The notes under the pieces: model-generated
Told to the model about the DNA's origin: nothing
The model's input: the letters and a program-made list of their open reading frames with translations, nothing else
Databases searched by the model: none
Shown: positions 8,547-59,203 of the stretch, in pieces
Position numbering within the stretch: the first letter of the stretch is position 1
Layout of the letters: every line of letters starts with the position of its first letter
Made by a program: the position numbers and the translations under genes
Origin: Thermodesulfobacteriota bacterium
GTDB taxonomy: Bacteria > Desulfobacterota > Binatia > Bin18
Direction of reading: 5' to 3'
NCBI GenBank assembly: GCA_964291405.2
Contig: OZ219926.1
Coordinates: 320,001-384,000 of the forward strand
DNA: 64,000 bases

Positions 8547-9584
8547 CTAGCCAGAATGCCCCTGCTGCAATTCTGCCCGGACCAGCCAAGCCCCATCGGC
8601 AAGGGCCTGCATCTTTCCTCGCGCTGCGGTGCGCGAGCGCGGAATCATACCACAGTCCGTACAGGGATAGAGATGCTCAGGCGCCACATACTGCAACGCT
8701 GTCCGAATACGCGCCGCAACCGTTTCACGCGTTTCCACCTCTTCGGTGCCAACGTCAATAACCCCGACCATCAAATCTTTGCCCTTGGCCTCGGCTAACA
8801 CTGCCGGATTGACGCCAGAGGCGGCACACTCGACTGAGATCATATCAATCGCGCTGGTCCGCAGCAGCGGCAGCGTACGCGCATAATGGCCCCAGTCCGT
8901 GTTCTGGCTCTTCCACTCAACGACCGCAGGGATACCGTATCCATAACAGATATGGACTGCAGTTTTAGCCTGCACCCCTTGAGCGCACTGTTCGAGCGTC
9001 TGGATGCCCCACTCTTCCACCGCATCGAGATAGATATTGAAACACGGCTCGTCGAACTGCACGATATCACACCCGTTCTCTGCCAGCTCACACGCCTCTT
9101 CATTTACCAGCCGCGCCAGTTCGGTCGCCAGCTTCCGGCGCTCCCCGTAGTACTCATCCGCAACCGTATCCGCGATGGTCATCGGACCGGGCAAGGTGAC
9201 TTTGACCGGCTTTGTCGTGTGCTGCTTCATAAAACGAAGCGCCTCAACCAACACCGACCGTGGACGACGCAACTGCTCGACCACCCGGGCGGCCCGGACT
9301 TTGATGCCGTAGCGGTTCCCTCGCGTTTCGATCTCAACCAAACGGCTGAAGTCCAACCCGGTCAGCCCTTCAACGAACCCCCAGATATAATGCCGACGCC
9401 GCTGTTCGCCGTCGGTCACGATATTGAGACCCGCCGCGTCCTGGTCAGCAAGCGCGAGCAGCACAGCATCGTCCTGGCCCTCACTCAGCATATCATCTTG
9501 CAGCTTCCACGAGACATACATGGCGTTCGGGGGAACGAGCCAGGTTGGACGGGGTAAGCTCCCGACAATCATGGTTTGCAGCAT
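8547..9584 (-). CDS. Cobalamin-independent core methionine synthase, MesD-like
   Basis: GSLPRPTWL, DGEQRR, LPGPMT, QFDEP, Zn ligands HICYGYG/E/PCTDCG; single MetE C-terminal-type barrel. Confidence 0.85.
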   Translation of the reverse strand: MLQTMIVGSLPRPTWLVPPNAMYVSWKLQDDMLSEGQDDAVLLALADQDAAGLNIVTDGEQRRRHYIWGFVEGLTGLDFSRLVEIETRGNRYGIKVRAARVVEQLRRPRSVLVEALRFMKQHTTKPVKVTLPGPMTIADTVADEYYGERRKLATELARLVNEEACELAENGCDIVQFDEPCFNIYLDAVEEWGIQTLEQCAQGVQAKTAVHICYGYGIPAVVEWKSQNTDWGHYARTLPLLRTSAIDMISVECAASGVNPAVLAEAKGKDLMVGVIDVGTEEVETRETVAARIRTALQYVAPEHLYPCTDCGMIPRSRTAARGKMQALADGAWLVRAELQQGHSG

Positions 9585-44414: not shown

Positions 44415-44741
44415 TCATATTTCCGGCTCACCCATCCAGGTCGGGAGGTCGCGCTGGCTATGGAGCACACGCCACACATCAATGTGGTCGTCCCGCTCGA
44501 CATAGAACACCAAGTAGGGGTAGCGCTTCAACGGCCAGGCGCGTAGGCCCGGCAAATCCAACTCCTGAGCGTAACGGGGTGCCCCCGACGCGGGATGCCG
44601 AGCGATATGCCGGTACGCCTTTTCCAGCGCGTCAATAAAGCCCAATCCGACCCGCTCTCCGCCCTCGTCCAGATAGTGATCGAGGGCTTGGTCAATATCG
44701 CGGTTGGCCAACGCCCGAGGAATGACCGGCTTGACGCTCAC
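44415..44741 (-). CDS. parE: ParE family toxin
   Basis: RALANRDIDQ...HPASGAPRY...YPYLVFY...VWRVLH. Confidence 0.92.
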   Translation of the reverse strand: MSVKPVIPRALANRDIDQALDHYLDEGGERVGLGFIDALEKAYRHIARHPASGAPRYAQELDLPGLRAWPLKRYPYLVFYVERDDHIDVWRVLHSQRDLPTWMGEPEI

Positions 44742-44989
44742 CCTTGCCGCCGTTGCTCCGCTCTTTTATGGAGCGTCTTGCGTAGCGTGTCGAAATAGGC
44801 CGCATCGGCAACGGACGATGGCTCAGACGCGGCTCCTGCGAGCAACAGAGCGCGTAAGTGCTGCCGGTCCTGGTCTTTGCGGATCAACTCACGGACATAC
44901 TCGCTACTGCTCCCGTAGCCGCGCTGCGCGACCTGCTCGTCTACAAAGGACTTGAGAGAGACTGGCAGGGAAATGTTCATAGTGCTCAT
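44738..44989 (-). CDS. parD: ParD family antitoxin
   Basis: MNISLP...FVDEQV...YGSSSEYVRELIRKDQ; TTGGCAAA repeat upstream at 45008-45026. Confidence 0.92.
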   Translation of the reverse strand: MSTMNISLPVSLKSFVDEQVAQRGYGSSSEYVRELIRKDQDRQHLRALLLAGAASEPSSVADAAYFDTLRKTLHKRAEQRRQG

Positions 44990-45073
44990 CTGCCCAAGAT
45001 AGATTGTTTGGCAAAAATTGGCAAACTCGTAGGTCAGGTTAGTGAAGCGTAACCTGACCTCCCCAGCCACGGC

Positions 45074-45370
45074 TTAGCGTTTCCGTGATGCTCTTGCCAG
45101 GCGGCGGGCCGTATCCTGATAGATGCTTGCACGTGAGCCTATGGCACTCACTTCGAGAACCGTTCGGGTTGTCCGGTAAATAATCCGAACGCGCCCAACC
45201 CGGAAACTCCACCACCCGGAGAGTTCACGCCGTAACGGCTTTCCTGCCGATGGATGTTCCCGAAGGATGTCTAAAGCTGCCCGAATGCGTTGCTTGAGTG
45301 CCGGGTGCATGGCTCGGATGGCCGCCTGGACTTCGCGCGGGAGTCGGACCCGGCGCACGCTATGCCTCAT
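45074..45370 (-). CDS. RelE/ParE family toxin
   Basis: GKPLRRELSGWWSFRVGRVRIIY...IGSRASIY. Confidence 0.9.
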   Translation of the reverse strand: MRHSVRRVRLPREVQAAIRAMHPALKQRIRAALDILREHPSAGKPLRRELSGWWSFRVGRVRIIYRTTRTVLEVSAIGSRASIYQDTARRLARASRKR

Positions 45371-45638
45371 CAGAAAAGAGCTGGTCGAGGTCGGTATCCG
45401 TCAACGGCTTATCGCGGCCCTGTTTAAGCTGCTGCATTCCGGTGTGGATCTCTTTGACCAACTCCTGGTCCGACAGAACAGCGAGGGTCTCCTGCCAGCT
45501 CTCAAACTCCTCGTAGCTCACGAGGACGGCGGTCGCCTGACCGTTTTTGGTAATCGTAACCTCTTCGTCGGTAGTCGCAATGTCGGCCACGAGTTGACTC
45601 AGCTTGGCCTTTACCTCAGCTAACGGCAGGATACGCAT
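45360..45638 (-). CDS. Phd/YefM antitoxin
   Basis: LAEVKAKLSQLV...ITKNGQATAVLVSYEEFESWQETL. Confidence 0.93.
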   Translation of the reverse strand: MRILPLAEVKAKLSQLVADIATTDEEVTITKNGQATAVLVSYEEFESWQETLAVLSDQELVKEIHTGMQQLKQGRDKPLTDTDLDQLFSDEA

Positions 45639-45731: not shown

Positions 45732-46541
45732 TCAAACCGGCTGAGCCGCCAGCCACGCCTGAGCTGCCGCTGCAATCAAGCGCAAGGCGGCGCGACTGCC
45801 TGCCCCTTCACCCTTTTCAAAATCGCCCTCGACTTGGCCCATCTGGTTGGTGACATGGGCGAAGCACACGACCGCCTTGTCCCGTGCCTGGGCGAAGGCG
45901 TACAGGGCGGCGGCCTCCATTTCGACGGCAAGAATCCCGCGCTGTTCCGCGTGCCGAATCGCTTCTTGTGTTTCTCGGAACGGGGCGTCGGTTGTCCAGG
46001 TTGCTCCACGATAGACCGGAGGGTCTCCGTCTGAGAGAGCACTGGCAAACAGGTCCAGCAGGTCCGGCTTCAAGAACGAGAAATCGGACGGCGGCAGATA
46101 ATGATAGCTCGTGCCTTCGTCGCGCAGAGCTTTTTCGACCAGGATAAAAAACGGCGGCTCTTCTTTGTGGGCAATTTGCCCGGAGGACGTGACGTGGATG
46201 AGCAACTGACAGCCGGAGGCAAATAATTCCTCGGCTACCAAAACGGCGAACGGTGCACCCACCACATGCCGGATAATACCGATCTCAATCCCGCTGAGCG
46301 TGAACCGATGTAATGTCGTGTGGTAACAGGCCCAGGTGTCGTGTTCGTGCGCCTCGCCACGGCCCAGCAGACTGGCGACAATATCCCCGTCCGGGTCAAG
46401 TACGCAGATACTCGGCACTTGGCCTTCTGGCAGGCCCATTTGACGCCGCGCTTCGCGCAACAGATTTTCCGGGACGAATTGCGATGGCCGGTCGTAGGCT
46501 TTGTGTTGGAGAACGGGGGGAGATGAGCGGGTGTCGGCCAT
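45732..46541 (-). CDS. Nucleoside phosphorylase family protein
   Basis: VGAPFAVLVAEE, ALRDEGTSYHY, WTTDAPFRET, VEMEAAA. Confidence 0.9.
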   Translation of the reverse strand: MADTRSSPPVLQHKAYDRPSQFVPENLLREARRQMGLPEGQVPSICVLDPDGDIVASLLGRGEAHEHDTWACYHTTLHRFTLSGIEIGIIRHVVGAPFAVLVAEELFASGCQLLIHVTSSGQIAHKEEPPFFILVEKALRDEGTSYHYLPPSDFSFLKPDLLDLFASALSDGDPPVYRGATWTTDAPFRETQEAIRHAEQRGILAVEMEAAALYAFAQARDKAVVCFAHVTNQMGQVEGDFEKGEGAGSRAALRLIAAAAQAWLAAQPV

Positions 46542-46568: not shown

Positions 46569-47222
46569 TTACAAGCGCTGCAACGCGAAGACGGCGGTGG
46601 TGGCGCGTAGGTTTTTATAGCGCAGACTCTGCAAACGCCGGCTGCGGGATAGATAGATCTCTTCCAGTATGCCGAAGCCCAAATGGTGACAGAAGTCGCA
46701 AAAGTCAGCCACGGTAAACGCCTGCCAGCGCGGCGCTTCGTACCAGCGTTCGGCCAGATCAAAGACTTGTGGAATGCGACCGGCAACGAGCATTTCGAGC
46801 CGACAGCGCCAAAAGCCCCAGTTCGGAAAACTGACGATCGCACGGCTGCCAACCCGGAGCATCTCGCTCAGGATCATGGCCGGATCGTTCAAAAAGGGCA
46901 ACGTCTGGCTCAAAATCACCGAGTCAAAACTCGCATCCGGGTAATCGGCCAAGCCCTCTTCCAGATTTCCCTGGCGTACACTCAGCCCGCGCCGGACACA
47001 GGCCAGCATGCCCTCTTCGCTGCGTTCTACGCCCCGTCCCGTCACCTGCTTGCTATGCACCAGATATTCGAGCAGAGCCCCGTCACCACAGCCCAGGTCC
47101 AACACTCGCGATCCGGCTGGGACCATATCGGCAATGGCAAGCAGGTCTGACCGCAGCAGGACCGGACTCCCGCTCGATAGAGCCGGACGCGGAGGCGCAG
47201 ACGGTTCAACCTCACCACTCAT
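46569..47222 (-). CDS. metW: Methionine biosynthesis protein MetW
   Basis: RVLDLGCGDG, VILSQTL, IVSFPNWG; follows metX. Confidence 0.93.
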   Translation of the reverse strand: MSGEVEPSAPPRPALSSGSPVLLRSDLLAIADMVPAGSRVLDLGCGDGALLEYLVHSKQVTGRGVERSEEGMLACVRRGLSVRQGNLEEGLADYPDASFDSVILSQTLPFLNDPAMILSEMLRVGSRAIVSFPNWGFWRCRLEMLVAGRIPQVFDLAERWYEAPRWQAFTVADFCDFCHHLGFGILEEIYLSRSRRLQSLRYKNLRATTAVFALQRL

Positions 47223-48433
47223 GCCGCGGCCTCGGTCTTTGTCTGCTCCTTTGGTGGGACGGGTGGCGGGAAACCGGGCGGGATGGCCACCCGCTCCGAT
47301 TGGACCAAGCGCTCCAGAAAGCCGCTGAGCAGCTTGGTCATGGTTTCGACCTCAAGCAGAAACGCATCATGTCCCCATGAGCTTTGGACGTCCAAATAGG
47401 TCACATCGGCACCGGCCGCAGTAAGCGCACTGACCAACTCCTTGCTGTGATAGCTGGGGTAAAGCCAATCGCTAGTAAAACTCAGCACCAGGTAGCGCAG
47501 GTCGGCCGAGTTGGCAAAGGCGGCCGCCACTGAGCCGGTCTCTGCGCTCAGATCAAAATAGTCCATCGCCTTGGTCACATACAGATAGCTGTTAGCGTCA
47601 AACCGGCGCGTAAAATTATGACCTTTGTATTTGAGGTAGCTCTCGACCTGAAACTCGGAACGAAACTCATAGCCGTACCGAACCTGGTCCTGGAGCCGCC
47701 GCCCGAACTTCTGCTGCATGGATTCTTCGCTCAGATAGGTAATATGGCCGACCATGCGGGCGACCGCCAGGCCGGCATCGGGTTTGAGGCCCGCGTCGTA
47801 ATAGTCCCCATTATTCCAGGCCGGATCAGCATAAATCGCCTGCCGTCCCACTTCGCTCAGGGCAATCAGCATGGGGCTGTGATGGGCGGTGGTCGCAATG
47901 GGAATGGCGGCTTTCAGCCGCTTCGGATAATGTGCTGCCCACTCAAGCGCCTGCATCCCACCCATTGAGCCGCCAGCCACGCACAGCAGGCTGTCGATGC
48001 CCAGATGATCGATCAGCCGAACCTGGGCGCGCACCATGTCCCCAATGGTCACGACCGGAAAGTGCATGCCGTACGGTTTACCGGTCGCCGGGTCGGGGTC
48101 CGACGGTCCGGTCGAGCCGTAGCAGCCGCCCAGGACATTACTGCAAATAATAAAGAATTTATTGGTATCAAAGGCTTTGCCCGGTCCGATACAGTCGTCC
48201 CACCAGCCGGCTTTGGCTTCGTCCGGCTGGTGGTAGCCAGCCGCATGCGCGCTGCCGCTCAGGGCGTGCGTAATAAGAATGGCATTGGTCCGGTCGGCGT
48301 TGAGTTGACCATAGGTTTCATACGCCACGGTCACCGGCCCCAGGGTGGCCCCGCTGTCCAACTGAAAGGACTCGTCCTCAGCAAAGGTCAGCCGCTGCGG
48401 CTGAACGAGCCCGACTGAGCCATTCGTGCTCAT
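47219..48433 (-). CDS. metX: Homoserine O-acetyltransferase
   Basis: HALSG, GGSMGGMQ, RRFDANSY, GHDAFL. Confidence 0.97.
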   Translation of the reverse strand: MSTNGSVGLVQPQRLTFAEDESFQLDSGATLGPVTVAYETYGQLNADRTNAILITHALSGSAHAAGYHQPDEAKAGWWDDCIGPGKAFDTNKFFIICSNVLGGCYGSTGPSDPDPATGKPYGMHFPVVTIGDMVRAQVRLIDHLGIDSLLCVAGGSMGGMQALEWAAHYPKRLKAAIPIATTAHHSPMLIALSEVGRQAIYADPAWNNGDYYDAGLKPDAGLAVARMVGHITYLSEESMQQKFGRRLQDQVRYGYEFRSEFQVESYLKYKGHNFTRRFDANSYLYVTKAMDYFDLSAETGSVAAAFANSADLRYLVLSFTSDWLYPSYHSKELVSALTAAGADVTYLDVQSSWGHDAFLLEVETMTKLLSGFLERLVQSERVAIPPGFPPPVPPKEQTKTEAAA

Positions 48434-48454: not shown

Positions 48455-48547
48455 GAACCCACCCCGCTGCTTCGCAGCACCCCTCCCAAGAGGGGATTAT
48501 TTTCTTTTCCCCTCCTCGGAGGGGTGGCCGAAGGCCGGGGTGGGTTC
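48455..48547. repeat. REP-like paired palindromic element
   Basis: GAACCCACCCCG..CCCCTCCCAAGAGGGG / CCCCTCCTCGGAGGGG..CGGGGTGGGTTC; same family as 49961-50064. Confidence 0.8.
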
Positions 48548-48577
48548 CATATTAAAACGCATTCCGACTCGACTAGC

Positions 48578-49876
48578 CTACCCGGTCGCTGCGTGCAGGG
48601 CTTGTTCCAGATCCCAGATGATGTCGTCAATATCTTCCAAGCCAACACTCAGCCGGACAAAATCCACTGTTGCACCAGCACTGATCAACTCGTCTTCATT
48701 GAGCTGGCTGTGGGTCGTACTGGCTGGGTGAATCGCCAGACTCTTGGCATCTCCGACATTGGCGACATGGCTGTGCAGCTTGAGACTGTTAATGAATTTC
48801 TCACCCGCGGCCCGGCCACCCTTGATCTGAAAGCCCATGATCGAGCCGGGTCCGAGCGGCAAATACTTCTTGGCCTTTTCATGGTCCGGGCTGTTGGGCA
48901 GCCCAGGGAAAGCGACGGCGTTCACGCCGGCATGGCTCTCCAGAAACTCGGCGACCTGCTGGGCGTTGGCCACGTGGCGTTCCATGCGCAGGCTTAGCGT
49001 CTCGATCCCGAGCAGGGTCGTAAAGCTGTCAAACGGTGCCTGGCAGCCGCCCACATCACGCAGGATTTGCACGCGCGATTTGAGTATCATGGCCGGGGCG
49101 CCGAGGTTGGCGTATACCAGGCCGTGATACGATGGGTCCGGTTCGGTAAAGTTTGGAAAGCGTCCGCTGGTCCAATCGAAATTGCCGCCATCCACAATCA
49201 TGCCACCAATGGCCGTTCCGTGGCCACTCAGGAACTTGGTCGTGCTATGCGTCACAATATGTGCGCCCCACTCAAACGGCCGACACAGATACGGCGTAGC
49301 AAACGTATTGTCTATCATTACCGGGATATGATGCGCCTCGGAAATGGCCGACACTTCCTCGAAAGGGAAAACCGTAATATCCGGGTTGCCCAAGGTCTCG
49401 CCGTAGATAATTTTGGTATTGGGCTGGATGGCCTTTTCAAATTCTTCCGGCTTGGTCGGGTCTACAAAGGTCGAGCTAATGCCCATGCGCGGGAAGGTAT
49501 GCGCGAACTGATTAAACGTGCCGCCATACAGCCGACTGCTGGTCACAATATGGTCGCCCTGGCCACACAGCGCCATGATGGCCATCATCTGCGCCGCGTG
49601 CCCGCTGCTGGCCGCTAACGATCCGACCCCACCCTCAAGGGCGGCAACCCGTTGCTCCAACACATCATTGGTCGGGTTCATGATGCGCGTATAGATATTG
49701 CCGGGTTCGCTCAGCGCGAACAGATTGGCCGCGTGCTCGGTATTCTTAAACTGATAACTCGTGGTGTGGTAAATCGGGACGGCTCGGCTGCCCGTCGTCG
49801 GGTCGGGGTTTTGTCCTGCGTGCAACTGACGCGTATTAAAGCCGTATTTGCGTTCGTTAGTGTCGTCTGCGCCCAT
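48578..49876 (-). CDS. metY: O-acetylhomoserine aminocarboxypropyltransferase (sulfhydrylase)
   Basis: YTRIMNPT, LYGGT, DNTFATP, HSTTKF (PLP Lys), HPASTTHSQL; start MGADD at 49876. Confidence 0.96.
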   Translation of the reverse strand: MGADDTNERKYGFNTRQLHAGQNPDPTTGSRAVPIYHTTSYQFKNTEHAANLFALSEPGNIYTRIMNPTNDVLEQRVAALEGGVGSLAASSGHAAQMMAIMALCGQGDHIVTSSRLYGGTFNQFAHTFPRMGISSTFVDPTKPEEFEKAIQPNTKIIYGETLGNPDITVFPFEEVSAISEAHHIPVMIDNTFATPYLCRPFEWGAHIVTHSTTKFLSGHGTAIGGMIVDGGNFDWTSGRFPNFTEPDPSYHGLVYANLGAPAMILKSRVQILRDVGGCQAPFDSFTTLLGIETLSLRMERHVANAQQVAEFLESHAGVNAVAFPGLPNSPDHEKAKKYLPLGPGSIMGFQIKGGRAAGEKFINSLKLHSHVANVGDAKSLAIHPASTTHSQLNEDELISAGATVDFVRLSVGLEDIDDIIWDLEQALHAATG

Positions 49877-49960
49877 GCGATTCTCCTCTTCCTTTCGTGG
49901 CTCCCACAGTCTTAGCCGATTCCGGCGCATAGGGCTATAACACAGCTTCCGCTTGTCCCT

Positions 49961-50064
49961 ATCCCCTCTCGGGAGGGGTGCCGAAGGCGGGGTGGGTTCC
50001 CTCCTGCCGGGCGCGAGGCAGCACCCACCCCGGCCCTTCAGGCCATCCCTCCGAGGAGGGGGTT
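49961..50064. repeat. REP-like paired palindromic element
   Basis: CCCCTCTCGGGAGGGGTGCCGAAGGCGGGGTGGGTT...ACCCACCCCGG...CCCTCCGAGGAGGGG. Confidence 0.8.
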
Positions 50065-50158
50065 TCACTCTGCTCGGTCGAGCGTTGTTGTCTCAGTCAG
50101 CGTCTCTGGCTATGATGTTCGCGCTCGACAAAGCAAGGACGGCAAAGGAGTACACGTT

Positions 50159-50521
50159 ATGGCAGGACAATTCTGTGTCTCACTAACTCACTCAAAGGAT
50201 AATACCGACAAGGCAACCGTCGCCTTTGTGATTGCCAATGCCGCGGTGGGTTCGGACCAGGACACCCTGGTCTTCCTCAGCACCGAGGGCGTACGTCTGG
50301 CCGTCAACGGCTACGCCGACGATATTCATGAGGACGGCTTTGCTCCGCTCAAAGAACTGATGACCAATTTTGCCGAAGCCGGCGGCACGATATACGTGTG
50401 CTCGCCCTGCTTTAAGAAACGCGGCCTGGATGAGAACAACCTCGTGCCGGGGGCCAATATTGTCGGTGGTGCCAAGCTGGTCGAGTTCCTGGCCGGAGGG
50501 ACGCCGAGCGTGTCGTATTAG
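50159..50521 (+). CDS. DsrE family protein
   Basis: DKATVAFVIANAA, VFLSTEGV, YVCSPCFKKRG, IVGGA. Confidence 0.9.
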   Translation: MAGQFCVSLTHSKDNTDKATVAFVIANAAVGSDQDTLVFLSTEGVRLAVNGYADDIHEDGFAPLKELMTNFAEAGGTIYVCSPCFKKRGLDENNLVPGANIVGGAKLVEFLAGGTPSVSY

Positions 50522-50527
50522 GGCCTA

Positions 50528-50562
50528 CTCTCACCCTAGCCCTCTCCCAGTAAGGAAAGGGA
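50528..50562 (+). repeat. Degenerate REP-like unit (CTCACCCTAGCCCTCTCCC..AGGG); a related unit lies at 56390-56424
   Basis: Intergenic palindromic motif seen twice. Confidence 0.5.
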
Positions 50563-50586
50563 AGCGGAGCACGGGAATAGGAAAGC

Positions 50587-52173
50587 ATGGATTCCGATAC
50601 TCAGACGCACCCGTACCAGCCGACGGACAGTTTTGACGGCGGAGACCTCGACTGTGGCAATGGTTTGTTGTTGCTGATCCGCAAGCATATTGATCCCCTT
50701 ACCCCAGGCCAACTGCTCGAAATCCTGTCCACCGAAACCTCGGTGGTCGAAGACCTGCCGGCCTGGTGCCGTCTGACCGGAAACGACTTGGTCTCCCACA
50801 TCAGCCGGGGCAAGCAGAACAGCTTCCTGGTTTCAAAAGGTCCGGCTCCGGACCTCCGCTCCGCTGAGCCTGAGCTAGCGACTCCCTCAAAAAAGAACAA
50901 GAAGAAGACGAAACACCGTTCAGCACGCGAAAAGGAATACGCGCCGATTACCCAGCCCATCGCCGAGGTCGTGATTCCCGACCACCTGCCGCAGCCTGCC
51001 CCGGCTCCGAGCGTTGCCCCGCTGTCTGTCATGGGCGTCGGCAGTTGGCCGCGACCACCCTGGCTGCTGCGTGCCCTCAACGATCATCTCGAAGGCCGCA
51101 TGTCGGCCGAAGAATTTGACCAGACCGCCGATGATGCCGTGCGACTGACGGTGGCCGCCCAGCAGCGTGCCGGTGTCGATGTTCTCACCGACGGCGAGCA
51201 GCGTCGGGATAACTACGCCAGCTTCGTCGGCGGGCTGCTCGATAACTGCCAGCTGATTCCCATTACCGACCTCCTGCCGTATGTCGACGATCCCGAAGAG
51301 TTCGAGCGCGAGTTGCGTGCCTTGGACGTCCCGGCCGGCAAGGTACGCCATCCGGCCGTTTTCGGACCGTTGGGCAGAAGCCGTTCGCTAACCGTTCACG
51401 AGGCAAATTTTCTTACCAGCCTGACCGACCGGCCACTCAAGGTTGCCCTGCCCGGTCCCTATCTGTTGACCCGCACAATGTGGATGGAGTGCATCTCCGA
51501 CCGAGCCTATGACACGCGGGAAGAACTCGCCATAGATGTCGTCCGGGTCTTACGCGAGGAACTCCACTACTTGCTCGCTGCTGGCGTCTCGCTGGTTCAA
51601 CTGGACGAACCCGTTCTGACCGAGGTCGTCTTCAGCGGCACCTCAAACAATCGCACCTTTATGTGTGGTGCGCTGGGAGAGAAGCGCGAGGCCGCTGCGG
51701 AGTTGGCCTTTGCCGAATCGCTCATTAATCAGACGGTCGCCAATCTGCCCCAAGAACGACTGGCGCTGCATATCTGTCGCGGCAACTGGACGCCGGATGA
51801 AAGCGTGGCCCTGGCCGGCGACTATGAGCCCCTTCTACCCCTATTGAAGAAAGTCGCAGTAGGCACGCTCATGCTGGAGCTCTGCACGCCTCGGGCTGGA
51901 GATGAGGCCGTTTTGCGCGGCCTGCCGGACGACCGGCGCGTCGGCGTTGGGGTTGTGAATCAGAAGACGCAAAGCCTTGAGACAGTAGACCAGATTGTCA
52001 CAAAGGCGGAGAAGGCCATTCGTCTTTTTGGGGCCGAGCGTCTCCTCCTGACCCCCGACTGCGGCTTTGCCACGTTTGCGGATAATCCTATCGCGTCAGC
52101 CACGCTTGCCGAACAAAAACTGACGGCCATCACTCAGGCTGCGACCATCCTTCGCGACCGGCACGGCCTATAG
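50587..52173 (+). CDS. TusA-like sulfur-carrier domain fused to a cobalamin-independent methionine-synthase-like (MetE core) domain
   Basis: FDGGDLDCGNGLLL..LEILS..DLPAWCRLTG; Lys/Pro linker; GSWPRP, TDGEQRRD, LPGPY, QLDEP, HICRGN, PDCGF. Confidence 0.88.
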   Translation: MDSDTQTHPYQPTDSFDGGDLDCGNGLLLLIRKHIDPLTPGQLLEILSTETSVVEDLPAWCRLTGNDLVSHISRGKQNSFLVSKGPAPDLRSAEPELATPSKKNKKKTKHRSAREKEYAPITQPIAEVVIPDHLPQPAPAPSVAPLSVMGVGSWPRPPWLLRALNDHLEGRMSAEEFDQTADDAVRLTVAAQQRAGVDVLTDGEQRRDNYASFVGGLLDNCQLIPITDLLPYVDDPEEFERELRALDVPAGKVRHPAVFGPLGRSRSLTVHEANFLTSLTDRPLKVALPGPYLLTRTMWMECISDRAYDTREELAIDVVRVLREELHYLLAAGVSLVQLDEPVLTEVVFSGTSNNRTFMCGALGEKREAAAELAFAESLINQTVANLPQERLALHICRGNWTPDESVALAGDYEPLLPLLKKVAVGTLMLELCTPRAGDEAVLRGLPDDRRVGVGVVNQKTQSLETVDQIVTKAEKAIRLFGAERLLLTPDCGFATFADNPIASATLAEQKLTAITQAATILRDRHGL

Positions 52174-52292: not shown

Positions 52293-52309
52293 TTACAACC
52301 CAATTGCAA
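52293..52309. promoter_or_regulatory. Zur-like box
   Basis: TTACAAC-CCA-ATTGCAA; similar to the deltaproteobacterial Zur motif ATGCAAC-N3-GTTGCAT. Confidence 0.7.
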
Positions 52310-52386
52310 ATACATTAAACCCTTGATATTAGACTCCCGTCCATCAAGAGAGAAAAGCTCCCTTGTGAGAAAAGGAAGTAAGAATC

Positions 52387-55300
52387 ATGCGCGATAAGAG
52401 TATTATATCCCTCCAGAGCTTCATCATCCGCTGGAGTGTCGCTTTCCTCCTGCTGTTCGTCTGGGCACTGCCGGCCCTGGCCCAAGACGATGGGCAGCTC
52501 ATCGTCGCCGACCCGGCAGCAGAGAAGCTCTACGTCTATGAACTCCCGTCACTCACCCTAAAGGCGGAGTTCGATAACATACGCATGGCTCCACAGGCGG
52601 GTTTTCTTCCCCTCAAAGGAGAACGGCTCATTTTTATCAATGAAGAGGCCGCTCCGCAGGACGAGCACGGCCATCAGGACGAGCACGGCCATCAGGATGA
52701 GCACGGCCATCAGGATGAGCACGGCCACGCTGACACCCACAGCGAGACCATTCCGAGCGGCGAGATGATCATGCTCAAGATGAATCTCAGAGGGGAGCCG
52801 GCCATCATTGGCCGTGTAGTCGTGAGCTGGACGGGTGGAGTCGGCCAGATTGCCGTGCATCCAAAGATGGAATTTGCCGCAGTTGCTTCGGGCGCAGTCT
52901 CCACTGAGGAAGGTGACCACGAAGACGAACACGGTCACGAAGACGAACACGGCCACGAAGACGAACACGGCCATGAAGACGAACATGGTCACGAAGACGA
53001 ACACGGCCATGAAGACGAACACGGTCACGAAGACGAACACGGCCATGAAGACGAACACGGCCATGAGCACGGCACGGGCGGCGGGTCAGTCTCCGTGATC
53101 GATTTACGTTGGTGGACTTCCTCGTCCTACAGCACCATTGCAACGAACCCGATTGAGAGTGAAGCGCCCGGTATAGCCATCGCCAGAAGCCCCGACATGC
53201 TTTTGCAGAGCCTCGGAAGCGAGCTGCCTTTTGCGTATAGCGCTCAGGCTCATGATGAGGCGGGTGAAGACGAACATGAGCATGATCACGAGGGCGAAGA
53301 CGATCACGAGGGCGAAGACGACCACGAGGGCGAAGACGACCACGAGGACGACCACGAAGGCGACCACGAGGGCGAAGACGACCACGAGGGCGAAGACGAC
53401 CACGCGCATGAGGACGAGCAGCCAATCGGCCGTCTGCTCGTCGGCGACGGAGATACGGGCGCCCTTTCGGTCATTGACTTGGAGCACGGCGATGTCGAGC
53501 AGGACGCCTTCGACATGGGATCGCGCGCCGGACGCATATACGCCACCAAGAGCGGGCGTTTCGCCATCGCCGTGGCCACCGATGCCAACAACGTCCATGT
53601 CTTCGACGGCGGCATATACGAGGAGGAGCACGGCGACCATTTCGACTTGATCAATAATCCGGTGCAGAGGCTGGACCTCGATTTATCCGGCGACCGCCCG
53701 GCGCATCTGTCCGTGGGCGGCGAGTGGGCCGCTATCTTTTATGACGGCTCCGGCAATGTCGTGCTGCTCAACGAACGTGAGCTGGAAGAGGAAGGCGCAG
53801 ATTACTCGCCGCCAGTCTTCAATATCGGCCCTCAGCATGGGGGGGCGGTTCCGCTGTATGACGGACTGATAGCCACCACGACCCAGCACCCGGATTACGA
53901 TTCCTCCCCCGCTGATTACCGCCTCCCTGTCGGCGCCGACATCCGCGACCTCGCCGGTAACGTGCTGTACAGCGCCACTGGTTGCGACGGCCTGCACGGC
54001 GACGCCGGCAACGGCCATGTCGCCGTCTTCGGCTGCATCGGCGGGGTATTGGCAATCGAGGCACACGACGGTCAGTATGGACACGTATTCATACCTCCCC
54101 CAGCGGGCGAACCTGACGATTTCCGTCTGACTTCAGTATGGGGATACGCCGGCTTGGACCACTTCTTTGCCCTCGGCTCTGCAGTGGGGCTGTATGTGGT
54201 GGAGCCGGAAGAAGGAAGCATGACGCAACTCATCCCGGCCAGCGAAGAGCTCCGGCCGATAAACGTCGCCATCAGCCACGACGGCCATGCCCTGCTGGTG
54301 ATGATGGGCGACGGTGAACTGCGGATGTACGACGCCAAAGACCTCGATCTGCTGGCATCGGCGACCGGCTTCCTGACCACTCCAGTGGAGAGCGGCTTCT
54401 GGGGCCGTCCGCATATCGCCACCGCTCCCGGTGCGGTCTTCGTCACCGACTCGGTGGGCGACAAGGTACTGCAACTCGATTCCCACGACCTCGACGTAGT
54501 GCGGCATTGGGATGTCACCGGCAACCCCACCAAGGTCGCCTTCGTCGGCATCAAGGGAGAACCCGACACTCACGGCCATGACCACGAGGGCGAGGACGAC
54601 CATGAGGGTGAGGACGACCACGACCACGAAGGCGAGGACGACCACGAAGGCGAGGACGACCACGAGGGCGAGGACGACCACGAAGGCGAGGACGACCATG
54701 AGGGTGAGGACGACCACGACCACGAAGGCGAGGACGACCACGAAGGCGAGGACGACCACGGACATCACGAAGAAGGTATTCATGAAGCCTTTCGTCTCAG
54801 TCGCCTCATCAGCAACGAAGAGGCATTCCTCAGCGATGTTGAATTAGGTTCCCGGCCTCAGGGCGATGTGATCAGCCATAAGCTGAAAGTCTATTGCTCA
54901 GCGACTGACATGGGCATTGAGTGCTCAGACATCGATGGCGGTAATCTGACGCCTGGTATCACCTTGCCCTATGACACTGCTGAGCGCAGTGGAGGGCGCG
55001 CGGTGTATGTGCGCCTTGCCGATGACCAGCGGACGGTTTTCTCCTTTATTCGGGATGATGCTGCGGACCCAGACGACTGGACCACATGGTCAAACGACGC
55101 CTATATCGGCAACCTCGAAACTGGAGATGTCACCCGAGTCGCTCTTGGTCCGGGACTACTGCATCGCTTTGCCCTGTCCGAAACCGTGGCGCTCTACATC
55201 CTGCAAGGCCCGCAGGGCGACCGCGCATTCCTGCTTGATGCCGATCCCCAGTCTCCCACATTCACGCAGATTAGGGCCACGATTGCGCTTCCGGCCTTAC

Positions 55301-55542
55301 AGGAGCCACTTGATCCGGACTTATCGCCATTTGCAGCGGGACAGCAGTTGCGACTGCCAGCACTGACTCCAGACGGGCAATGGGGGTTTGTCACACACGG
55401 CGGAGATGGCCTGATCTCGGTCATCAATACGGCTCAGGCAGAAATCATCCAACAGCTTGAGGTTCCCACACCGCTGGGCGGTGGAGGCTATGTCACTGCC
55501 GTCCAGAAAAAAATGAAGCTGTCAGATACGATTGGACGCTAG
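52387..55542 (+). CDS. Secreted His/Asp/Glu-rich beta-propeller protein containing an AztD-like zinc-chaperone domain
   Basis: Signal peptide ..PALAQ; central domain SGRFA..DGG..EEHGDHF..PAH..AIFYDG..HGGAVP..CDGLHG..FGCIGGVL; four His-rich repeat tracts. Confidence 0.82.
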   Translation: MRDKSIISLQSFIIRWSVAFLLLFVWALPALAQDDGQLIVADPAAEKLYVYELPSLTLKAEFDNIRMAPQAGFLPLKGERLIFINEEAAPQDEHGHQDEHGHQDEHGHQDEHGHADTHSETIPSGEMIMLKMNLRGEPAIIGRVVVSWTGGVGQIAVHPKMEFAAVASGAVSTEEGDHEDEHGHEDEHGHEDEHGHEDEHGHEDEHGHEDEHGHEDEHGHEDEHGHEHGTGGGSVSVIDLRWWTSSSYSTIATNPIESEAPGIAIARSPDMLLQSLGSELPFAYSAQAHDEAGEDEHEHDHEGEDDHEGEDDHEGEDDHEDDHEGDHEGEDDHEGEDDHAHEDEQPIGRLLVGDGDTGALSVIDLEHGDVEQDAFDMGSRAGRIYATKSGRFAIAVATDANNVHVFDGGIYEEEHGDHFDLINNPVQRLDLDLSGDRPAHLSVGGEWAAIFYDGSGNVVLLNERELEEEGADYSPPVFNIGPQHGGAVPLYDGLIATTTQHPDYDSSPADYRLPVGADIRDLAGNVLYSATGCDGLHGDAGNGHVAVFGCIGGVLAIEAHDGQYGHVFIPPPAGEPDDFRLTSVWGYAGLDHFFALGSAVGLYVVEPEEGSMTQLIPASEELRPINVAISHDGHALLVMMGDGELRMYDAKDLDLLASATGFLTTPVESGFWGRPHIATAPGAVFVTDSVGDKVLQLDSHDLDVVRHWDVTGNPTKVAFVGIKGEPDTHGHDHEGEDDHEGEDDHDHEGEDDHEGEDDHEGEDDHEGEDDHEGEDDHDHEGEDDHEGEDDHGHHEEGIHEAFRLSRLISNEEAFLSDVELGSRPQGDVISHKLKVYCSATDMGIECSDIDGGNLTPGITLPYDTAERSGGRAVYVRLADDQRTVFSFIRDDAADPDDWTTWSNDAYIGNLETGDVTRVALGPGLLHRFALSETVALYILQGPQGDRAFLLDADPQSPTFTQIRATIALPALQEPLDPDLSPFAAGQQLRLPALTPDGQWGFVTHGGDGLISVINTAQAEIIQQLEVPTPLGGGGYVTAVQKKMKLSDTIGR
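52657..52728 (+). repeat. Coding 18-bp tandem repeat x4 (QDEHGH)
   Basis: CAGGAYGAGCACGGCCAY x4. Confidence 0.95.
52921..53064 (+). repeat. Coding 18-bp tandem repeat x8 (EDEHGH)
   Basis: GAAGACGAACAYGGYCAY x8. Confidence 0.95.
53266..53418 (+). repeat. Coding tandem repeat (HEGEDD)
   Basis: CACGAGGGCGAAGACGAY units. Confidence 0.92.
54571..54772 (+). repeat. Coding tandem repeat (HEGEDD)
   Basis: CAYGARGGYGAGGACGAC units. Confidence 0.92.
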
Positions 55543-55558
55543 AGCAAATCACGATGTT

Positions 55559-55610
55559 GTGGAGTGCGGGCTTCCAGCCCGCATGGCGGCCAGGATGGCC
55601 GCCCTCCCAG
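55559..55610. repeat. REP doublet between convergent genes
   Basis: GGAGT-GCGGGCT-TCC-AGCCCGC...GCGGCCA-GGA-TGGCCGC-CCTCCC. Confidence 0.7.
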
Positions 55611-55715
55611 GAGGGGGCCTTCTCGGCGAGCGCGGACTGTGACTACAACGTATCGTGAAACGCCCTAGGGTTGCGGGCCCTCGCCTCTGAGCGCGGGCCG
55701 GGCTACCGTCCGCGT

Positions 55716-56162
55716 CTAGGCCGCACAACGATCGCACCGGCCGGTGAGTTGCACTTCAAAATGGTGATTTCTGATCGCACGAGGCGTACGGTCTGGTGCA
55801 GATACCTCGATGTTCGTATCGGGCAGACACTCGACCTCGCCACAGTCAATACAGGTAAAATGAGGATGTTGTTCGGTCTGGCCGTGCGCCTTGTCACGTA
55901 ATTCAAAACGCCAGACGTGATCGCCATGATCCGTTCGCGACAAGAGGCCGGCGTCAGTCAGGTCAATGAGATTCCGGTAGAGCGTCGCCCGGTCCAATCC
56001 CGCCGGCTCCAGGGCTTCAGCGATCTCCGCATGACTCATAGGAGTAATTGCCTGCTGAAGCCGCTGCAACACAGCAACACGGGGACCTGTGCTCCGTAGC
56101 CCAGTGGATCGAACCAGGGCACGGAGTTCTGCGATTGATCGAACGATCCTTTCTTTTTTCAT
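55716..56162 (-). CDS. Fur family transcriptional regulator (probable Zur)
   Basis: GLRSTGPRVAVL, DRATLYRNL, HPHFTCIDCG, GRCDRC; sits inside the Zn uptake cluster. Confidence 0.9.
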   Translation of the reverse strand: MKKERIVRSIAELRALVRSTGLRSTGPRVAVLQRLQQAITPMSHAEIAEALEPAGLDRATLYRNLIDLTDAGLLSRTDHGDHVWRFELRDKAHGQTEQHPHFTCIDCGEVECLPDTNIEVSAPDRTPRAIRNHHFEVQLTGRCDRCAA

Positions 56163-56307
56163 AGCGTCACCTATCCTACCGATTTCTGTAGCCTCCGGCA
56201 AGAAAAAATTGCCGCAGGTCTGCCGCTTACAACCGACAGCGGAAGGCCACGTGCCTCCCCACTCCACACTTCTCCCTCTATATGAAACCTTCGTCATAAT
56301 AATCTTT

Positions 56308-56324
56308 TTACAATATAGTTGCAA
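56308..56324. promoter_or_regulatory. Zur-like box between the divergent fur-family and cobW genes
   Basis: TTACAAT-ATA-GTTGCAA. Confidence 0.72.
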
Positions 56325-56526
56325 ATACATCAAATACTTGATATTAGAGACCCCGTGATGGACCGCATTTCGTTTTCCCAGGGTTCACCGTCTCTCAATC
56401 CCTCTCCGGGCAGAGGAGAGAGGGTGCTATGAGCGCCTGCCTTCCTTGCCCGGCCCCCCGACAGAGTTTCCCTCCTGTTACTCTGTTGGGGGTGCCTTTT
56501 TGTCTCACTCGGCTGTCTTTTGCGTT

Positions 56527-57465
56527 ATGCTGTCTGTAAAAACGCTATTCGAGCACGCTCCCAGCATCCCCATCTACGTCATTTCCGGTTTCCTGGGGAG
56601 CGGCAAGACAACCTTCCTGCGGGGCCTCCTGGCTTATACCGCGTCACAGGGTCTCAAGCCGGCGGTTCTGATTAACGATTATGGAGACGTGAGCACCGAT
56701 GGTGAACGCCTCCGGGGGCAAGGCTATCCGACCAAAACGTTTGCCGATGGTTGTATTTGCTGTACGCTGCGGCCGGATCTGAACTCCGCCCTCACGGCTC
56801 TCATCACCCAGCAGCCCGATGTCATCTTTATCGAAGCAACCGGGCTGGCCGATCCTGTCCGCCTGTTGGATCAACTCACACAGATAGAGATGCTGTCACG
56901 CGCGTTTGTTGCCGCGATGATTGCCGTTATCGACGTGCGGGGCTCATCCCAACAGATGGCAGGCTATGGCATGCATTCATTTACTGAGACGGCAGACTTC
57001 GTCTTGATTAACAAATGTGACCTCGCCCATTGGATGCAGCTCGCAAGAACGGCTCAAGAAGTCCAACGCAAAAACTCCCGAGCCAAAATTCTCCTGACCA
57101 CCTACGCCGAGGTGGACTTTTCTGAGGTGCTGAGTCAGCAGGGGACTCGGACGGCCCCCACCACTGCTCGCGCACCTCAGCATGACCATTTCCATACACT
57201 GACCTATCGCGCTCCGTGTTCCTTTATACCGGAGCCCTTCGCCGAAGTGATGCAAGCACTACCCGACGAAGTCTGGCGGGCGAAGGGCTTCGTTCGCTTT
57301 CACGACTCCTCAAAACAGTGGGAATTACAGTTTACTGGAAAAGAGTTTTTTATCGGACAGGTAGCCCTGACCCCACAACCTCAGGATCATCTGGTGTTTA
57401 TTGGCGCGGCGTTTGACCGCTCGGCGCTTCTTGCCGCGCTCGATTCATGTCTCGTACCGCACTAG
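56527..57465 (+). CDS. COG0523/CobW family metallochaperone GTPase
   Basis: GFLGSGKTT, GCICC, IEATGLADP, NKCD, WRAKG. Confidence 0.95.
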   Translation: MLSVKTLFEHAPSIPIYVISGFLGSGKTTFLRGLLAYTASQGLKPAVLINDYGDVSTDGERLRGQGYPTKTFADGCICCTLRPDLNSALTALITQQPDVIFIEATGLADPVRLLDQLTQIEMLSRAFVAAMIAVIDVRGSSQQMAGYGMHSFTETADFVLINKCDLAHWMQLARTAQEVQRKNSRAKILLTTYAEVDFSEVLSQQGTRTAPTTARAPQHDHFHTLTYRAPCSFIPEPFAEVMQALPDEVWRAKGFVRFHDSSKQWELQFTGKEFFIGQVALTPQPQDHLVFIGAAFDRSALLAALDSCLVPH

Positions 57466-57487
57466 GACCATGGCAATCCCGGTCGGC

Positions 57488-57540
57488 TTGACAATCTCTG
57501 GTCGTTCTTTAATGATGTTTCTATTACAACTATTATGCAA
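57488..57540 (+). promoter_or_regulatory. Promoter (TTGACA 57488) with a downstream Zur-like box (57524-57540)
   Basis: TTGACA-N17-AATGAT; TTACAAC-TAT-TATGCAA. Confidence 0.68.
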
Positions 57541-57552
57541 CAAGGAATCCCC

Positions 57553-59180
57553 ATGCGCACAACACTCGTGATCGCTCTCATATCGGCCACCTCCATCCTT
57601 TTGTCCCCGCCGGGCGCCAGCGCCCAGGCCGGCGACCCGGCCGAGGTCCAAGCCCTGCGCAGTCAGGTTGACCGTCTTGAGCAAACTGTCGAGCAACTCC
57701 AGCAAACCATTTTGCAAATGCAGAAGGACTCGACCTCACGAGATCAAGTACTCAAGCAACAAGTCGAGGCACAAGAAGCGCAAGTCCAGGCAATACAGCG
57801 GCAGCAAGTTGATCGTATGGCCGCCCAAGTTGACTCTCCGTTAGACCAGGCGCTGGATGAACTCGGCGTCCCGGATTTTGAGCCAGCAGCACCGGACCGG
57901 CGGGCGCTCTGGTCACAGCCGCTGGGCGGGGGCGCGCAATTGCGCTTGATTGACATTGCGGCCGATGTGCTGTTCTTCGCCGGCGGCTCCAGCGAGCGAG
58001 ACGCCGCGATTTCAACGCTCCAGGGTGGTAGCCACGACCCGAAACAGCGCGGCTTCACCCTGGGTCAGGCCGAGTTTTCCCTGTCCGGCGCGGTTGACCC
58101 CTACTTTACCGGCGATGCGCATATTCTCACCTCGGTCAACCCAAGCACCGGCGAGACCACGCTTGAGCTTGAAGAGGCATTTCTCACCTCGTCGGCCCTG
58201 CCCTATGACCTTCAGCTTGAGGTCGGCCATTTTCTGACCGAGTTCGGTCAGATCAACCCGCAACACCCCCACTTCTGGGATTGGATCGATCAACCGGTGG
58301 TCAACTCTCGTATGTTCGGCGGAGACGGCATGCGGCAGGCCGGTTTTCGGGCTTCGTGGCTTCCTCCCACACCGTGGTTCTCCGAGTTTCACTTCGGCAT
58401 GCAGAACGCCAATGGCGTGACCATGGCCAGCTTCCTGGGCGGAGAACTGGCCCATGCCCATGGGGGCGGCGGCCACGGCGGTGAAGACGAACACGGCCAC
58501 GGCGGTGAAGACGAACACGGCCACGCTCAGGAGCCGACCGGCGGCATTCATGGTGACGGCATCGCCGGCCGGCCGATTGTTGCCCAGGACGTGCGCGGCT
58601 TTGGAGATTTCCTCTATCTGACTCGTTTGGAAAACTCGTTCAACTTTACCGACGACGTGACCGCGGTGTTCGGCCTGTCCGGTCTGTACGGGCCAAACTC
58701 GACCGGGCGGGATGCCGACACCTGGCTATATGGGCTGGACATGAAGTGGCGCTGGCAGCCGCCCAGCAATTTCGGCTATCCGTTCCTGACCTGGCAGACC
58801 GAGATCATGAAGCGCGACTATCACGTGGCCCGCTATACTCAGGAAACCGAGACCGGCGATCTCGCCACCCTGCCGGGCCGCACCCTCAAGGACTGGGGTC
58901 TGTACACCCAGCTTTTGTACGGGTTTCAGACCAATTGGGCCGCCGGCCTGCGCTATGAGTACGCCGGCGGGAGTGGGCAGAGCATCGGCGGACGTAAGAA
59001 CGACCCGTTCCGTGATGACCGCCACCGCCTCTCTCCGTTGCTGGTCTGGCGGCCGACCGAGTTCTCGCGCATCCGGCTCCAGTACAACTACGATATCGCC
59101 AGCCACCTCAATGACGACGCGCATACCATCTGGCTCGGCTTCGAGTGGCTGTACGGGCCCACGCCGCGCACAACTTCTAA
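57553..59180 (+). CDS. Zinc-regulated outer-membrane beta-barrel protein with an N-terminal coiled coil and His-rich loop; probable 1-nt deletion near 59157
   Basis: HDPKQRGFTL, GAVDPYF, LEEAF, FGQINPQHPHFW, PTEFSRIRLQY; restoring one G gives the ending YGAHAAHNF* (TAA 59178). Confidence 0.8.
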
Positions 59181-59203
59181 GCCAACAGCAGGAGAATAAG
59201 CCC

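Follow-up and report, generated by a model that had tools for sequence, protein, structure and literature searches.

We describe here a two-gene unit in the window, i.e., the whole stretch of 64,000 nucleotides (nt) that was analyzed (G000:C3:320001-384000, from a Binatia genome of 4.95 Mb with a completeness of 97.5%). The unit encodes a small DsrE-like protein and a protein of 528 amino acids (aa) in which a TusA-like carrier domain is fused to the zinc barrel of a MetE-type enzyme. It is widespread, highly conserved, and unstudied, and, judging from sequence comparisons and a predicted structure, it is probably something other than an ordinary methionine synthase, acting on sulfur bound to a carrier at a site for homocysteine. 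In the reading favored here, which is more specific and tentative, the unit may be a pyridoxal 5′-phosphate (PLP)-independent, carrier-persulfide-dependent homocysteine synthase that feeds MetH. The parts of the unit, all on the + strand, are as follows.

50159-50521, + strand: DsrE-like small protein, 120 aa, motif V-C81-S-P-C84 (Pfam DsrE)
50587-52173, + strand: TusA-like::core-MetE fusion, 528 aa (Pfam TusA and Meth_synt_2)
50587-50862, + strand: TusA-like carrier domain, fusion residues 1-92 (Pfam, NCBIfam, and PDB TusA)
50863-50970, + strand: Lys/Pro-rich flexible linker, fusion residues about 92-128 (predicted local distance difference test, pLDDT, and alignment)
50971-52173, + strand: core MetE-type zinc barrel, fusion residues 129-528 (Pfam Meth_synt_2)
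50653-50655, + strand: codon of Cys23, in D-L-D-C-G-x-G, the carrier cysteine of the TusA-like domain
51769-51771, 51775-51777, 51877-51879, and 52060-52062, + strand: codons of the predicted zinc ligands H395, C397, E431, and C492
51664-51666, + strand: codon of Cys360, an extra invariant cysteine

A TusA-like domain is tethered to a predicted MetE-type zinc barrel

The original prediction for this locus was of a DsrE protein with CSPC preceding a fusion composed of a TusA-like domain with DCGNG, a flexible linker, and a zinc barrel, and both open reading frames (ORFs), their families, and their motifs were found as described, with a gap of 65 nt between the two ORFs. The N-terminal domain matched Pfam TusA (PF01206) over residues 28-84 (E 1.8e-7; 31.3 bits, above the cut-off of 28.6), and NCBIfam and PDB TusA alignments spanned residues 12-85, with PDB entries 1DCJ and 3LVJ at E 8e-4. 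By the offsets of the PDB matches (12-85 on 8-80), Cys23 lies at about the position of Cys19 of Escherichia coli TusA. At the place of the CPxP motif the fusion carries GGDLDCGNG, and this D-C-G-N-G departs from the CPXP that marks the TusA family (PMC5322559). Locus analyses used the best 80 of at least 578 confirmed loci, and residue counts have as denominators the loci covering each position. Cys23 and Gly24 were present in 76 of 76 loci, so the cysteine on which the proposal of a carrier depends is conserved; Cys61, the second cysteine of this domain, was found in 75 of 78 loci, with Ala in the other three. An AlphaFold2 model of the fusion contained a folded N-terminal domain, a disordered linker, and a barrel, with pLDDT values of 80-90 in the TusA-like domain and <50 at linker residues 92-128. 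Consistent with a linker, these columns were gapped and variable in the family alignment, differing in both length and sequence.

The C-terminal barrel is a predicted MetE-type zinc enzyme without the folate-binding barrel. The fusion matched Pfam Meth_synt_2 at E 5e-27 and carries the barrel motifs HICRGN, LELCTPRAG, and PDCGFA, while its score for Meth_synt_1, the folate-binding N-terminal barrel, was below the cut-off (19.4 versus 27 bits). Likewise, the score for full-length MetE (TIGR01371) was 70.5 bits against a cut-off of 929.95, with 528 aa against about 750 aa, and no NCBIfam model spanning the fusion reached its cut-off. Proteins of the family carry the database name '5-methyltetrahydropteroyltriglutamate--homocysteine methyltransferase'; this folate-type annotation is very probably wrong because the folate-binding barrel is absent.

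We then compared the active-site residues with those of characterized enzymes. In E. coli MetE, the zinc ligands are H641, C643, E665, and C726, and the contacts to the substrate are S433, E484, and D599, while in MesD (3RPD) Ser22, Glu73, and Asp188 contact bound selenomethionine (PMC7857596). The predicted ligands H395, C397, E431, and C492 were each present in 80 of 80 loci and, in alignments with the structures of MetE and MesD, fall on their HxC and DCG motifs, as expected of the MetE superfamily. S153 (78/78), E204 (78/78), and D340 (79/79) occupy the homocysteine-binding positions; by HMMER, they pair with SEQRES positions 25, 76, and 191 of 3RPD. With a three-residue tag offset taken into account, these positions are Ser22, Glu73, and Asp188, so S153, E204, and D340 match the substrate residues by which the core methionine synthases MesA-D were identified (PMC7857596). 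Because these residues are in place, the barrel is predicted to bind zinc and a homocysteine- or methionine-type amino acid. Cys360, within F-M-C-G-A-L-G in a family-specific insertion or loop, lies close in sequence to the predicted zinc and homocysteine-type site and was invariant in 80 of 80 loci, and further cysteines were found at positions 221 (78/78), 302 (78/78), and 433 (71/80). The Cys360 loop and a segment at about residues 208-266 are nearly invariant in the family, have no convincing counterpart in solved relatives, and are of low confidence in the AlphaFold2 model.

The fusion and its small cysteine proteins are conserved across phyla

A word-indexed search gave 6815 database proteins that match the fusion at E <=0.001 among 8000 candidates scored; the best 120 of these 6815 matches have lengths of 498-575 aa and identities of 65-94%, with both Pfam domains present in most of them. 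At the genome level, at least 578 loci encode a relative (of 599 pattern matches, with one genome per species). Members of the family keep 61-96% identity over at least nine phyla, and the record titles of the 80 loci analyzed name Binatia, Burkholderiales, Gallionellaceae, Planctomycetota, Actinomycetota/Acidimicrobiales, Rokuibacteriota, Methylomirabilota, Dehalococcoidia, Terriglobia/Acidoferrum, Thermoanaerobaculia, and Deltaproteobacteria; cultured carriers include Duganella alba, D. levis, and D. aceris. All 80 loci share the fusion architecture, which removes the concern that it might be an artefact. Clustering at 50% reduced the full-length fused family to about three representatives and therefore indicates tight conservation, and the ESM Atlas returned the family's own clusters only. 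Longer fusions were also seen, i.e., a 993-aa protein with an ABC ATPase and odd-length proteins with HMGL-like or MobA-like domains; these may be gene-calling joins and were set aside as uninformative. In the literature, no description of a TusA-like::MetE fusion with a DsrE-like unit was found, and the main texts of Price et al. 2021 (PMC7857596) and GapMind 2026 (PMC13759103) contain neither 'TusA' nor 'DsrE'.

The 120-aa protein matched Pfam DsrE (PF02635) at E 7.9e-16 with 58.7 bits (cut-off of 22.7), and all 69 of 69 homologues have its C-[SA]-P-C motif. Among solved structures, 3MC3 is the closest to it, and Cys81 aligns with the cysteine of that protein, in keeping with the conserved cysteine that follows the fourth strand in DsrE/TusD proteins. 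Neighborhood analysis of the fusions, the check proposed with the original prediction, found a DsrE-like gene in 70 of 80 loci and a free TusA-like gene in 52 of 80. The DsrE-like proteins are 68-99% identical and are mostly encoded just upstream of the fusion, or 2.2-3 kb upstream in a Burkholderiales group; nine of the 10 loci without one have <1.8 kb of upstream DNA, and the tenth, L087, has a full flank and still gave no match. With this partner kept and the folate-binding barrel absent, the fusion is not a plain MetE. A second DsrE-like gene, one of the extras of Burkholderiales operons, was found in 13 loci at no fixed position.

The free TusA-like gene, with the motif D-x-G-C-G, lies upstream of the DsrE-like gene and encodes a short protein of about 85 aa in 46 loci; in 6 others, the protein is a long form (200-260 aa) that is extended at its N terminus by a Cys/His-rich stretch. 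Binatia loci close to that of the window have no free TusA-like gene alongside the unit. The genome of the window encodes a long form elsewhere, 136 kb from the fusion:

G000:C3 ~233359-233979 (locus L127:1081-1701): long-form free TusA-like gene, 206 aa, D-M-A-C-G

Its extension has the conserved pattern C-x2-C-x4-C-x-H ... C-x2-C ... C ... C-x-W-P and no Pfam match, and in other phyla the long-form gene lies directly upstream of the DsrE-like gene. This N-terminal extension probably serves to bind a metal or a cluster.

In Burkholderiales, Oxalobacteraceae among them, genes for a PhnC/PhnE/PhnD-type ABC importer stand between the DsrE-like gene and the fusion (PhnE-like in 14 and PhnD-like in 11 of the 80 loci); PhnC and PhnE exceed NCBIfam cut-offs, and PhnD exceeds that of a subfamily model only. 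The metYXW genes adjoin the unit in 9 of 80 loci and a zinc-starvation-type cluster in 6-7 of 80, all of them in Binatia. No other recurrent neighbor was found around the fusion in the 80 loci, and therefore the substrates should be common metabolites; the operons are self-contained while their settings differ.

An unfused sister form in Binatia has a different set of sulfur partners

We searched 151 Binatia genomes with a 388-aa unfused relative from genome G224, retaining matches at E <=1e-90. Matches were found in 28 genomes, 20 with the fused and 8 with the unfused form, at 44% identity between the forms; the fused form was 41-45% identical to the query, and unfused matches were 82-100% identical. 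The fused form was found in the genome of the window and 16 of 18 others of its family, in 2 of 7 genomes of family f2, and in 1 of 17 of family f4, while the unfused form was confined to family f5 (8 of 17 genomes). Because each matching genome has exactly one match and none has both forms, the two replace each other.

The unfused loci (L130-L137) were examined with 1.5 kb of flank each. An OsmC-like gene lies directly downstream in all eight; its first cysteine is present in every one of them and its second in seven. Six of the eight loci also have a tandem rhodanese, with the motif CRSG[PS]RAA; no DsrE-like or TusA-like gene was found in these eight flanked loci. By comparison, all 20 fused Binatia loci (L138-L157) have the TusA domain and 19 of them the DsrE-like gene. 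Fused and unfused forms alike keep Cys360, the zinc ligands, and S153/E204/D340 without exception, which does not hold for Cys221, Cys302, and Cys433.

These patterns indicate that the same enzyme is served either by TusA and a DsrE-like C-x-P-C protein or by a rhodanese and a two-cysteine OsmC-like protein, so that a protein of the persulfide-carrier type is paired in both sets with a small one of the thiol-redox type. This partner replacement is the strongest evidence here that the enzyme needs sulfane sulfur together with a thiol reductant or resolving partner, and plain methyl transfer or a metal chaperone role is hard to reconcile with it. The proposal of a tethered cysteine carrier that serves the zinc site thus gains independent backing from the unfused form; the S-methyl or methylthio groups suggested as its possible cargo found no such backing.

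A possible route from carrier-bound sulfur to homocysteine

We tentatively propose that the DsrE-like protein and the fusion constitute the core of a self-contained cysteine-relay enzyme system, of which a third part, the free TusA-like protein, is encoded elsewhere in this genome. The carriers would be loaded with sulfane sulfur from the cellular persulfide pool or from thiosulfate, and the tethered Cys23 would swing the sulfur on the linker to the barrel, probably via Cys360. The zinc ion would then activate the sulfur as a nucleophile for attack on the gamma carbon of an activated homoserine (O-phospho- or O-acyl-) in the homocysteine pocket, and the two-cysteine partner would resolve the mixed disulfide so that homocysteine is released. 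Thiosulfate is a plausible source because of the TST-type rhodanese loop, the oxyanion-type ABC importer of Burkholderiales, and the thiosulfonate chemistry of DsrE3A/TusA (PMC4175335). The metYXW context in Binatia and the PhnCDE-type oxyanion importer fit an entry of sulfur into the methionine branch. Worded more broadly, a PLP-independent route to homocysteine or its selenium analogue, in which a protein persulfide relay would deliver to a MetE-fold zinc site for alkylation by an activated homoserine, is conceivable and must be regarded as doubtful. Alkylation of zinc thiolates by non-methyl electrophiles is carried out by protein prenyltransferases and by epoxyalkane:coenzyme M transferase, a MetE homologue. 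The latter resembles the proposed system in that a MetE fold uses a zinc thiolate on non-methyl carbon electrophiles; it differs in that the thiol is the small molecule coenzyme M and no carrier proteins take part.

MesD, the best solved relative (E 1.7e-28), which works with MesX in Acinetobacter (ACIAD3523/3524) and is represented by 3RPD of Shewanella, is likewise a single MetE-type barrel without a folate domain, with the same zinc ligands and Ser/Glu/Asp contacts and a reliance on a separate partner. Its partner, however, is MesX (DUF1852) with oxygen, not cysteine carriers, and the fusion adds the TusA-like domain, the Cys360 insertion, and a segment of about 50 residues (208-266) that HMMER aligned poorly. 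MetE (TIGR01371) shares the catalytic barrel fold, zinc site, and homocysteine-binding residues, whereas the fusion lacks the Meth_synt_1 barrel and has NQK where MetE has a DIHS-type motif. A functional analogue of the homocysteine synthase reading is the pair MetM/MetO of Streptomyces, in which MetM is PLP-dependent. MetM/MetO make homocysteine from O-phospho-L-homoserine and a protein thiocarboxylate, i.e., they also bring protein-bound sulfur to homocysteine (PMC13759103), although with unrelated proteins and chemistry, and they were compared by description only. In TusA-TusBCD, Metallosphaera DsrE3A-TusA, and the sHdr sets, members of the same families pass sulfur between cysteines, joined by rhodaneses (PMC4175335, PMC11094781). 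Those relays end at tRNA thiolation or sulfur oxidation complexes with no MetE-type enzyme, whereas here D-C-G-x-G stands for CPxP and the DsrE-like protein has C-x-P-C; its score with the TusD model TIGR03012 was 15.8 bits, far from the cut-off of 89.25.

Methionine synthase genes and the case for a core methionine synthase

The genome of the window encodes MetH (1251 bits) but lacks a full-length MetE. Its Meth_synt_2-type paralogues number 11 with the fusion included, and the others are 24-31% identical to the fusion barrel over most of its length; one lies at 8571-9584 of the window (- strand), with nine further places elsewhere, a large expansion. MesX (PF08908) gave no match in this genome, a weak negative since control genomes gave none either, and no corrinoid protein was found among the conserved neighbors of the unit.

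Fifty module-bearing genomes were picked from the 80 loci so as to spread over taxa. MetE was above the cut-off in 7 and MetH was matched in 43 (above the cut-off in 42), with neither in 7 (G003, G004, G011, G032, G042, G049, and G050); in G004, there is a partial frame, MetE-like, that contains a TAG. Counts here and below include unpublished genomes, namely G012 (SelD and MetH counts of the 50 genomes), G331 (Duganella family), and seven in the SelD sample of the G005 phylum. As matched backgrounds, MetE was found in 80 of 151 genomes of the Duganella family and in 8 of 151 of a Planctomycetota sample. The apparent avoidance of MetE is thus mostly background, and MetE depletion as a sign of redundancy was dropped on these matched samples; what remains, MetE in 2 of 9 module-bearing genomes of the Duganella family against 78 of 142 others, is weak.

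One of the genomes with neither enzyme, G003, is a 2.9-Mb chromosome-level Dehalococcoidia assembly (locus L077) with the unit and a dozen core-MetE-like frames. It gave no match to MetE, MetH, HcyBio, or HTS, no PF01053 enzyme at E <=1e-30, and no MetX at E <=1e-20, so that either external methionine is needed or the unit and the core-MetE paralogues do the job. A second such genome, G049, has neither a PF01053 enzyme nor HcyBio.

Several observations weigh against a homocysteine synthase. With MetY encoded next door and MetH in the same genome, such an enzyme would be redundant in this organism. The 2 of 9 versus 78 of 142 distribution of MetE leans toward a methionine synthase, of which the conserved residues are equally those to be expected, and G003 is a single genome that may simply be a methionine auxotroph. 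In addition, the rhodanese/OsmC context comes from a single bacterial family, f5, and we know of no precedent for zinc-assisted persulfide attack on activated homoserine.

The foremost alternative, possible if somewhat unlikely, is that the unit is a fifth family of core methionine synthase without a folate domain. Here the cysteine proteins would act like MesX or corrinoid proteins, either supplying or activating a methyl donor or keeping the zinc-site thiols reduced. The HCEC zinc site and the S/E/D substrate residues are those by which such synthases are recognized (PMC7857596), the nearest solved relative is MesD itself, and the pattern of MetE (7), MetH (43), and neither (7) in the 50 genomes, the MetE counts in the Duganella family, and the adjacency of metYXW in Binatia all agree with it. 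Both partner sets, however, consist of sulfane-sulfur and thiol-redox proteins that methyl transfer would not need, and to our knowledge no cysteine-based methyl carrier donates to a thiolate. Furthermore, MetE is scarce in Planctomycetota anyway, so that its depletion is largely background, Duganella genomes hold MetE, MetH, and the unit together, and neither the window nor 16 other loci gave an upstream riboswitch for cobalamin or S-adenosylmethionine.

Less likely selenium and methylthio versions

An improbable variant of either reaction, homocysteine or methionine synthesis, is one that handles selenium. With perselenide on the carriers, selenohomocysteine or selenomethionine would be made or processed at the zinc site, so that selenium is scavenged for use by SelD or is prevented from entering the methionine pool. 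SelD was above the cut-off in 49 of the 50 module-bearing genomes and also in the genome of the window, and a unit in a Burkholderiales-like metagenome genome lies about 3 kb from tRNA-Sec, selB, and selA on the opposite strand (L051:4819-7953). The PhnD-like protein also weakly matches a 'putative selenate ABC' model (72.9 bits against a cut-off of 250), and the SelD-linked protein YedF joins SirA/TusA-like and DsrE-like domains, with a CxxC-type motif (CGXC) (PMC5322559). YedF differs in having no enzyme domain and in retaining CPXP in its TusA part, and its model TIGR03527 was absent among NCBIfam matches at E <=0.01 for the DsrE-like, fusion, and free TusA-like proteins.

As a control, SelD was counted in matched samples, where it was present in 128 of 151 (Duganella family), 110 of 151 (G005 phylum), and 113 of 151 (G040 phylum) genomes, or 351 of 453 pooled, with many of the listed SelD-negative genomes only 1.3-3 Mb in size. 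The enrichment in the 50 genomes is therefore modest and inflated by kinship, and against such backgrounds the co-occurrence was dropped as a selenium link, leaving a minor alternative. In the 80 loci, no selenocysteine was found at any conserved cysteine, and SelD is no conserved neighbor; a metagenome scan for U-x-x-C within its exact flanking motif gave 36 stretches, of which none was DsrE-like or fusion-like. The SelD of the genome of the window (G000:C3:39564-40481) lies within an open frame of 759 aa and must therefore be joined to a further domain; several genomes of Planctomycetota and Binatia have similarly long frames for SelD (730-844 aa).

Marine and sponge habitats are ones in which methylated sulfur compounds are common. 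RNA contigs of close relatives of the unit came from runs labelled marine and sponge metagenome, a setting that would suit capture of methylthio groups, in which CH3-S would be bound to the carriers as a mixed disulfide and methionine would form directly at the zinc site from methanethiolate and an activated homoserine. A two-cysteine partner could free the thiolate, and the related 3RPD pocket binds methionine-type products (PMC7857596). This version is very improbable, however, in that rhodanese and TusA proteins carry sulfane sulfur or thiosulfonate rather than methylthio groups (PMC4175335, PMC11094781) and that no methanethiol-producing gene was found among the conserved neighbors.

Genomic setting, expression, and the neighboring zinc cluster

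The features on the other side of the unit and in the intergenic regions are as follows.

48578-49876, - strand: metY, O-acetylhomoserine sulfhydrylase (TIGR01326, 650.7 bits, above cut-off)
47219-48433, - strand: metX, homoserine O-acyltransferase (NF001209, 530.8 bits, above cut-off)
46569-47222, - strand: metW (TIGR02081, 217.6 bits, above cut-off)
45732-46541, - strand: PNP_UDP_1 phosphorylase-family gene, directly downstream of metW
50088-50116, + strand: candidate promoter-like site TTGTCT-17-TATGAT from a consensus scan, 43 nt upstream of the DsrE-like start
49950-50080 and 48455-48548, no strand assigned: GC-rich palindromic, REP-like (repetitive extragenic palindromic) repeat with units of about 40 nt, in the metY/dsrE and metX/metY intergenic regions

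The metY-metX-metW genes are transcribed divergently from the DsrE-like gene and the fusion. The longest ORF of metY extends to 50068, with the start likely at MGADD (about 49876). The shared upstream region on which the original prediction drew is thus present here, but the link is not a conserved one, given the 9 of 80 loci noted above. The PNP_UDP_1 gene beside metW is kept in seven Binatia loci and may encode a nucleoside phosphorylase or a nucleosidase tied to methionine salvage. Farther along, four small overlapping ORFs of 92-110 aa (44415-45638, - strand) look by eye like two toxin-antitoxin pairs.

The promoter scan gave one observed site against 0.3 expected. The REP-like repeat, with 70 matches genome-wide, fills the 282 nt that separate metY from the DsrE-like gene, and a weak match to the small RNA CcsR1 (E 0.012) fell within this 70-copy repeat and was rejected as a false lead, leaving no specific regulatory RNA. 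Rfam gave no family at gathering score in the window and hence no riboswitch; in the 16 other loci it likewise gave no riboswitch, only tRNA, tRNA-Sec, and a tmRNA fragment. The RNA-library contigs, from four runs of two studies and from close relatives (90-99% alike), extend over the two genes and across the junction between them (50143-51010, 50224-50983, 50143-50910, and 50224-50775); there was no contig coverage beyond 52238, which proves nothing. They are compatible with co-transcription in these relatives and are no proof of it, since such libraries can hold DNA.

Downstream of the fusion lies a cluster of the zinc-starvation type.

Within 52387-59199 (zinc cluster): AztD-like protein, 1051 aa, with long His/Asp/Glu-rich repeats (NF038015, 105 bits, below cut-off)
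55716-56333, - strand: Fur-family gene
56446-57465: CobW-type GTPase
57535-59199: 554-aa protein with His-rich inserts

In related Binatia loci, transport-type membrane and binding-protein ORFs apparently follow this cluster. A 30-nt motif with a perfect core occurs upstream of the AztD-like gene (52304-52333) and in the divergent region between fur and cobW (56319-56348) and looks like a shared operator. It was not found upstream of the DsrE-like gene, so the zinc cluster is taken as a separate unit, and zinc regulation of the DsrE-like gene and the fusion was rejected. That the cysteine proteins are zinc chaperones for the barrel within a zinc-starvation cluster, as the AztD-like, Fur-family, CobW, and transport-type genes downstream might suggest, is thus barely credible, given also that the cluster accompanies the unit only in Binatia and that replacement by rhodanese and OsmC-like proteins is unlike a chaperone role.

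Significance

New in this analysis are the controls for SelD and MetE and the replacement of partners by rhodanese and OsmC-like proteins in Binatia. Because cultured Duganella strains carry the fusion, the family is testable. Synthesis of homocysteine and methionine belongs to core metabolism, and its remaining gaps are under active curation. If the unit is a homocysteine synthase, sulfur would enter the methionine branch at a new point and the MetE fold would gain a new chemistry, and the fold that places the methyl group on homocysteine would also form the carbon-sulfur bond of homocysteine itself. If it is instead a methionine synthase, it would add a fifth family to those independent of B12, and why this family needs sulfur carriers would call for an explanation. 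Either reading would alter calls of B12 dependence and methionine prototrophy for soil, freshwater, and sponge-associated bacteria.

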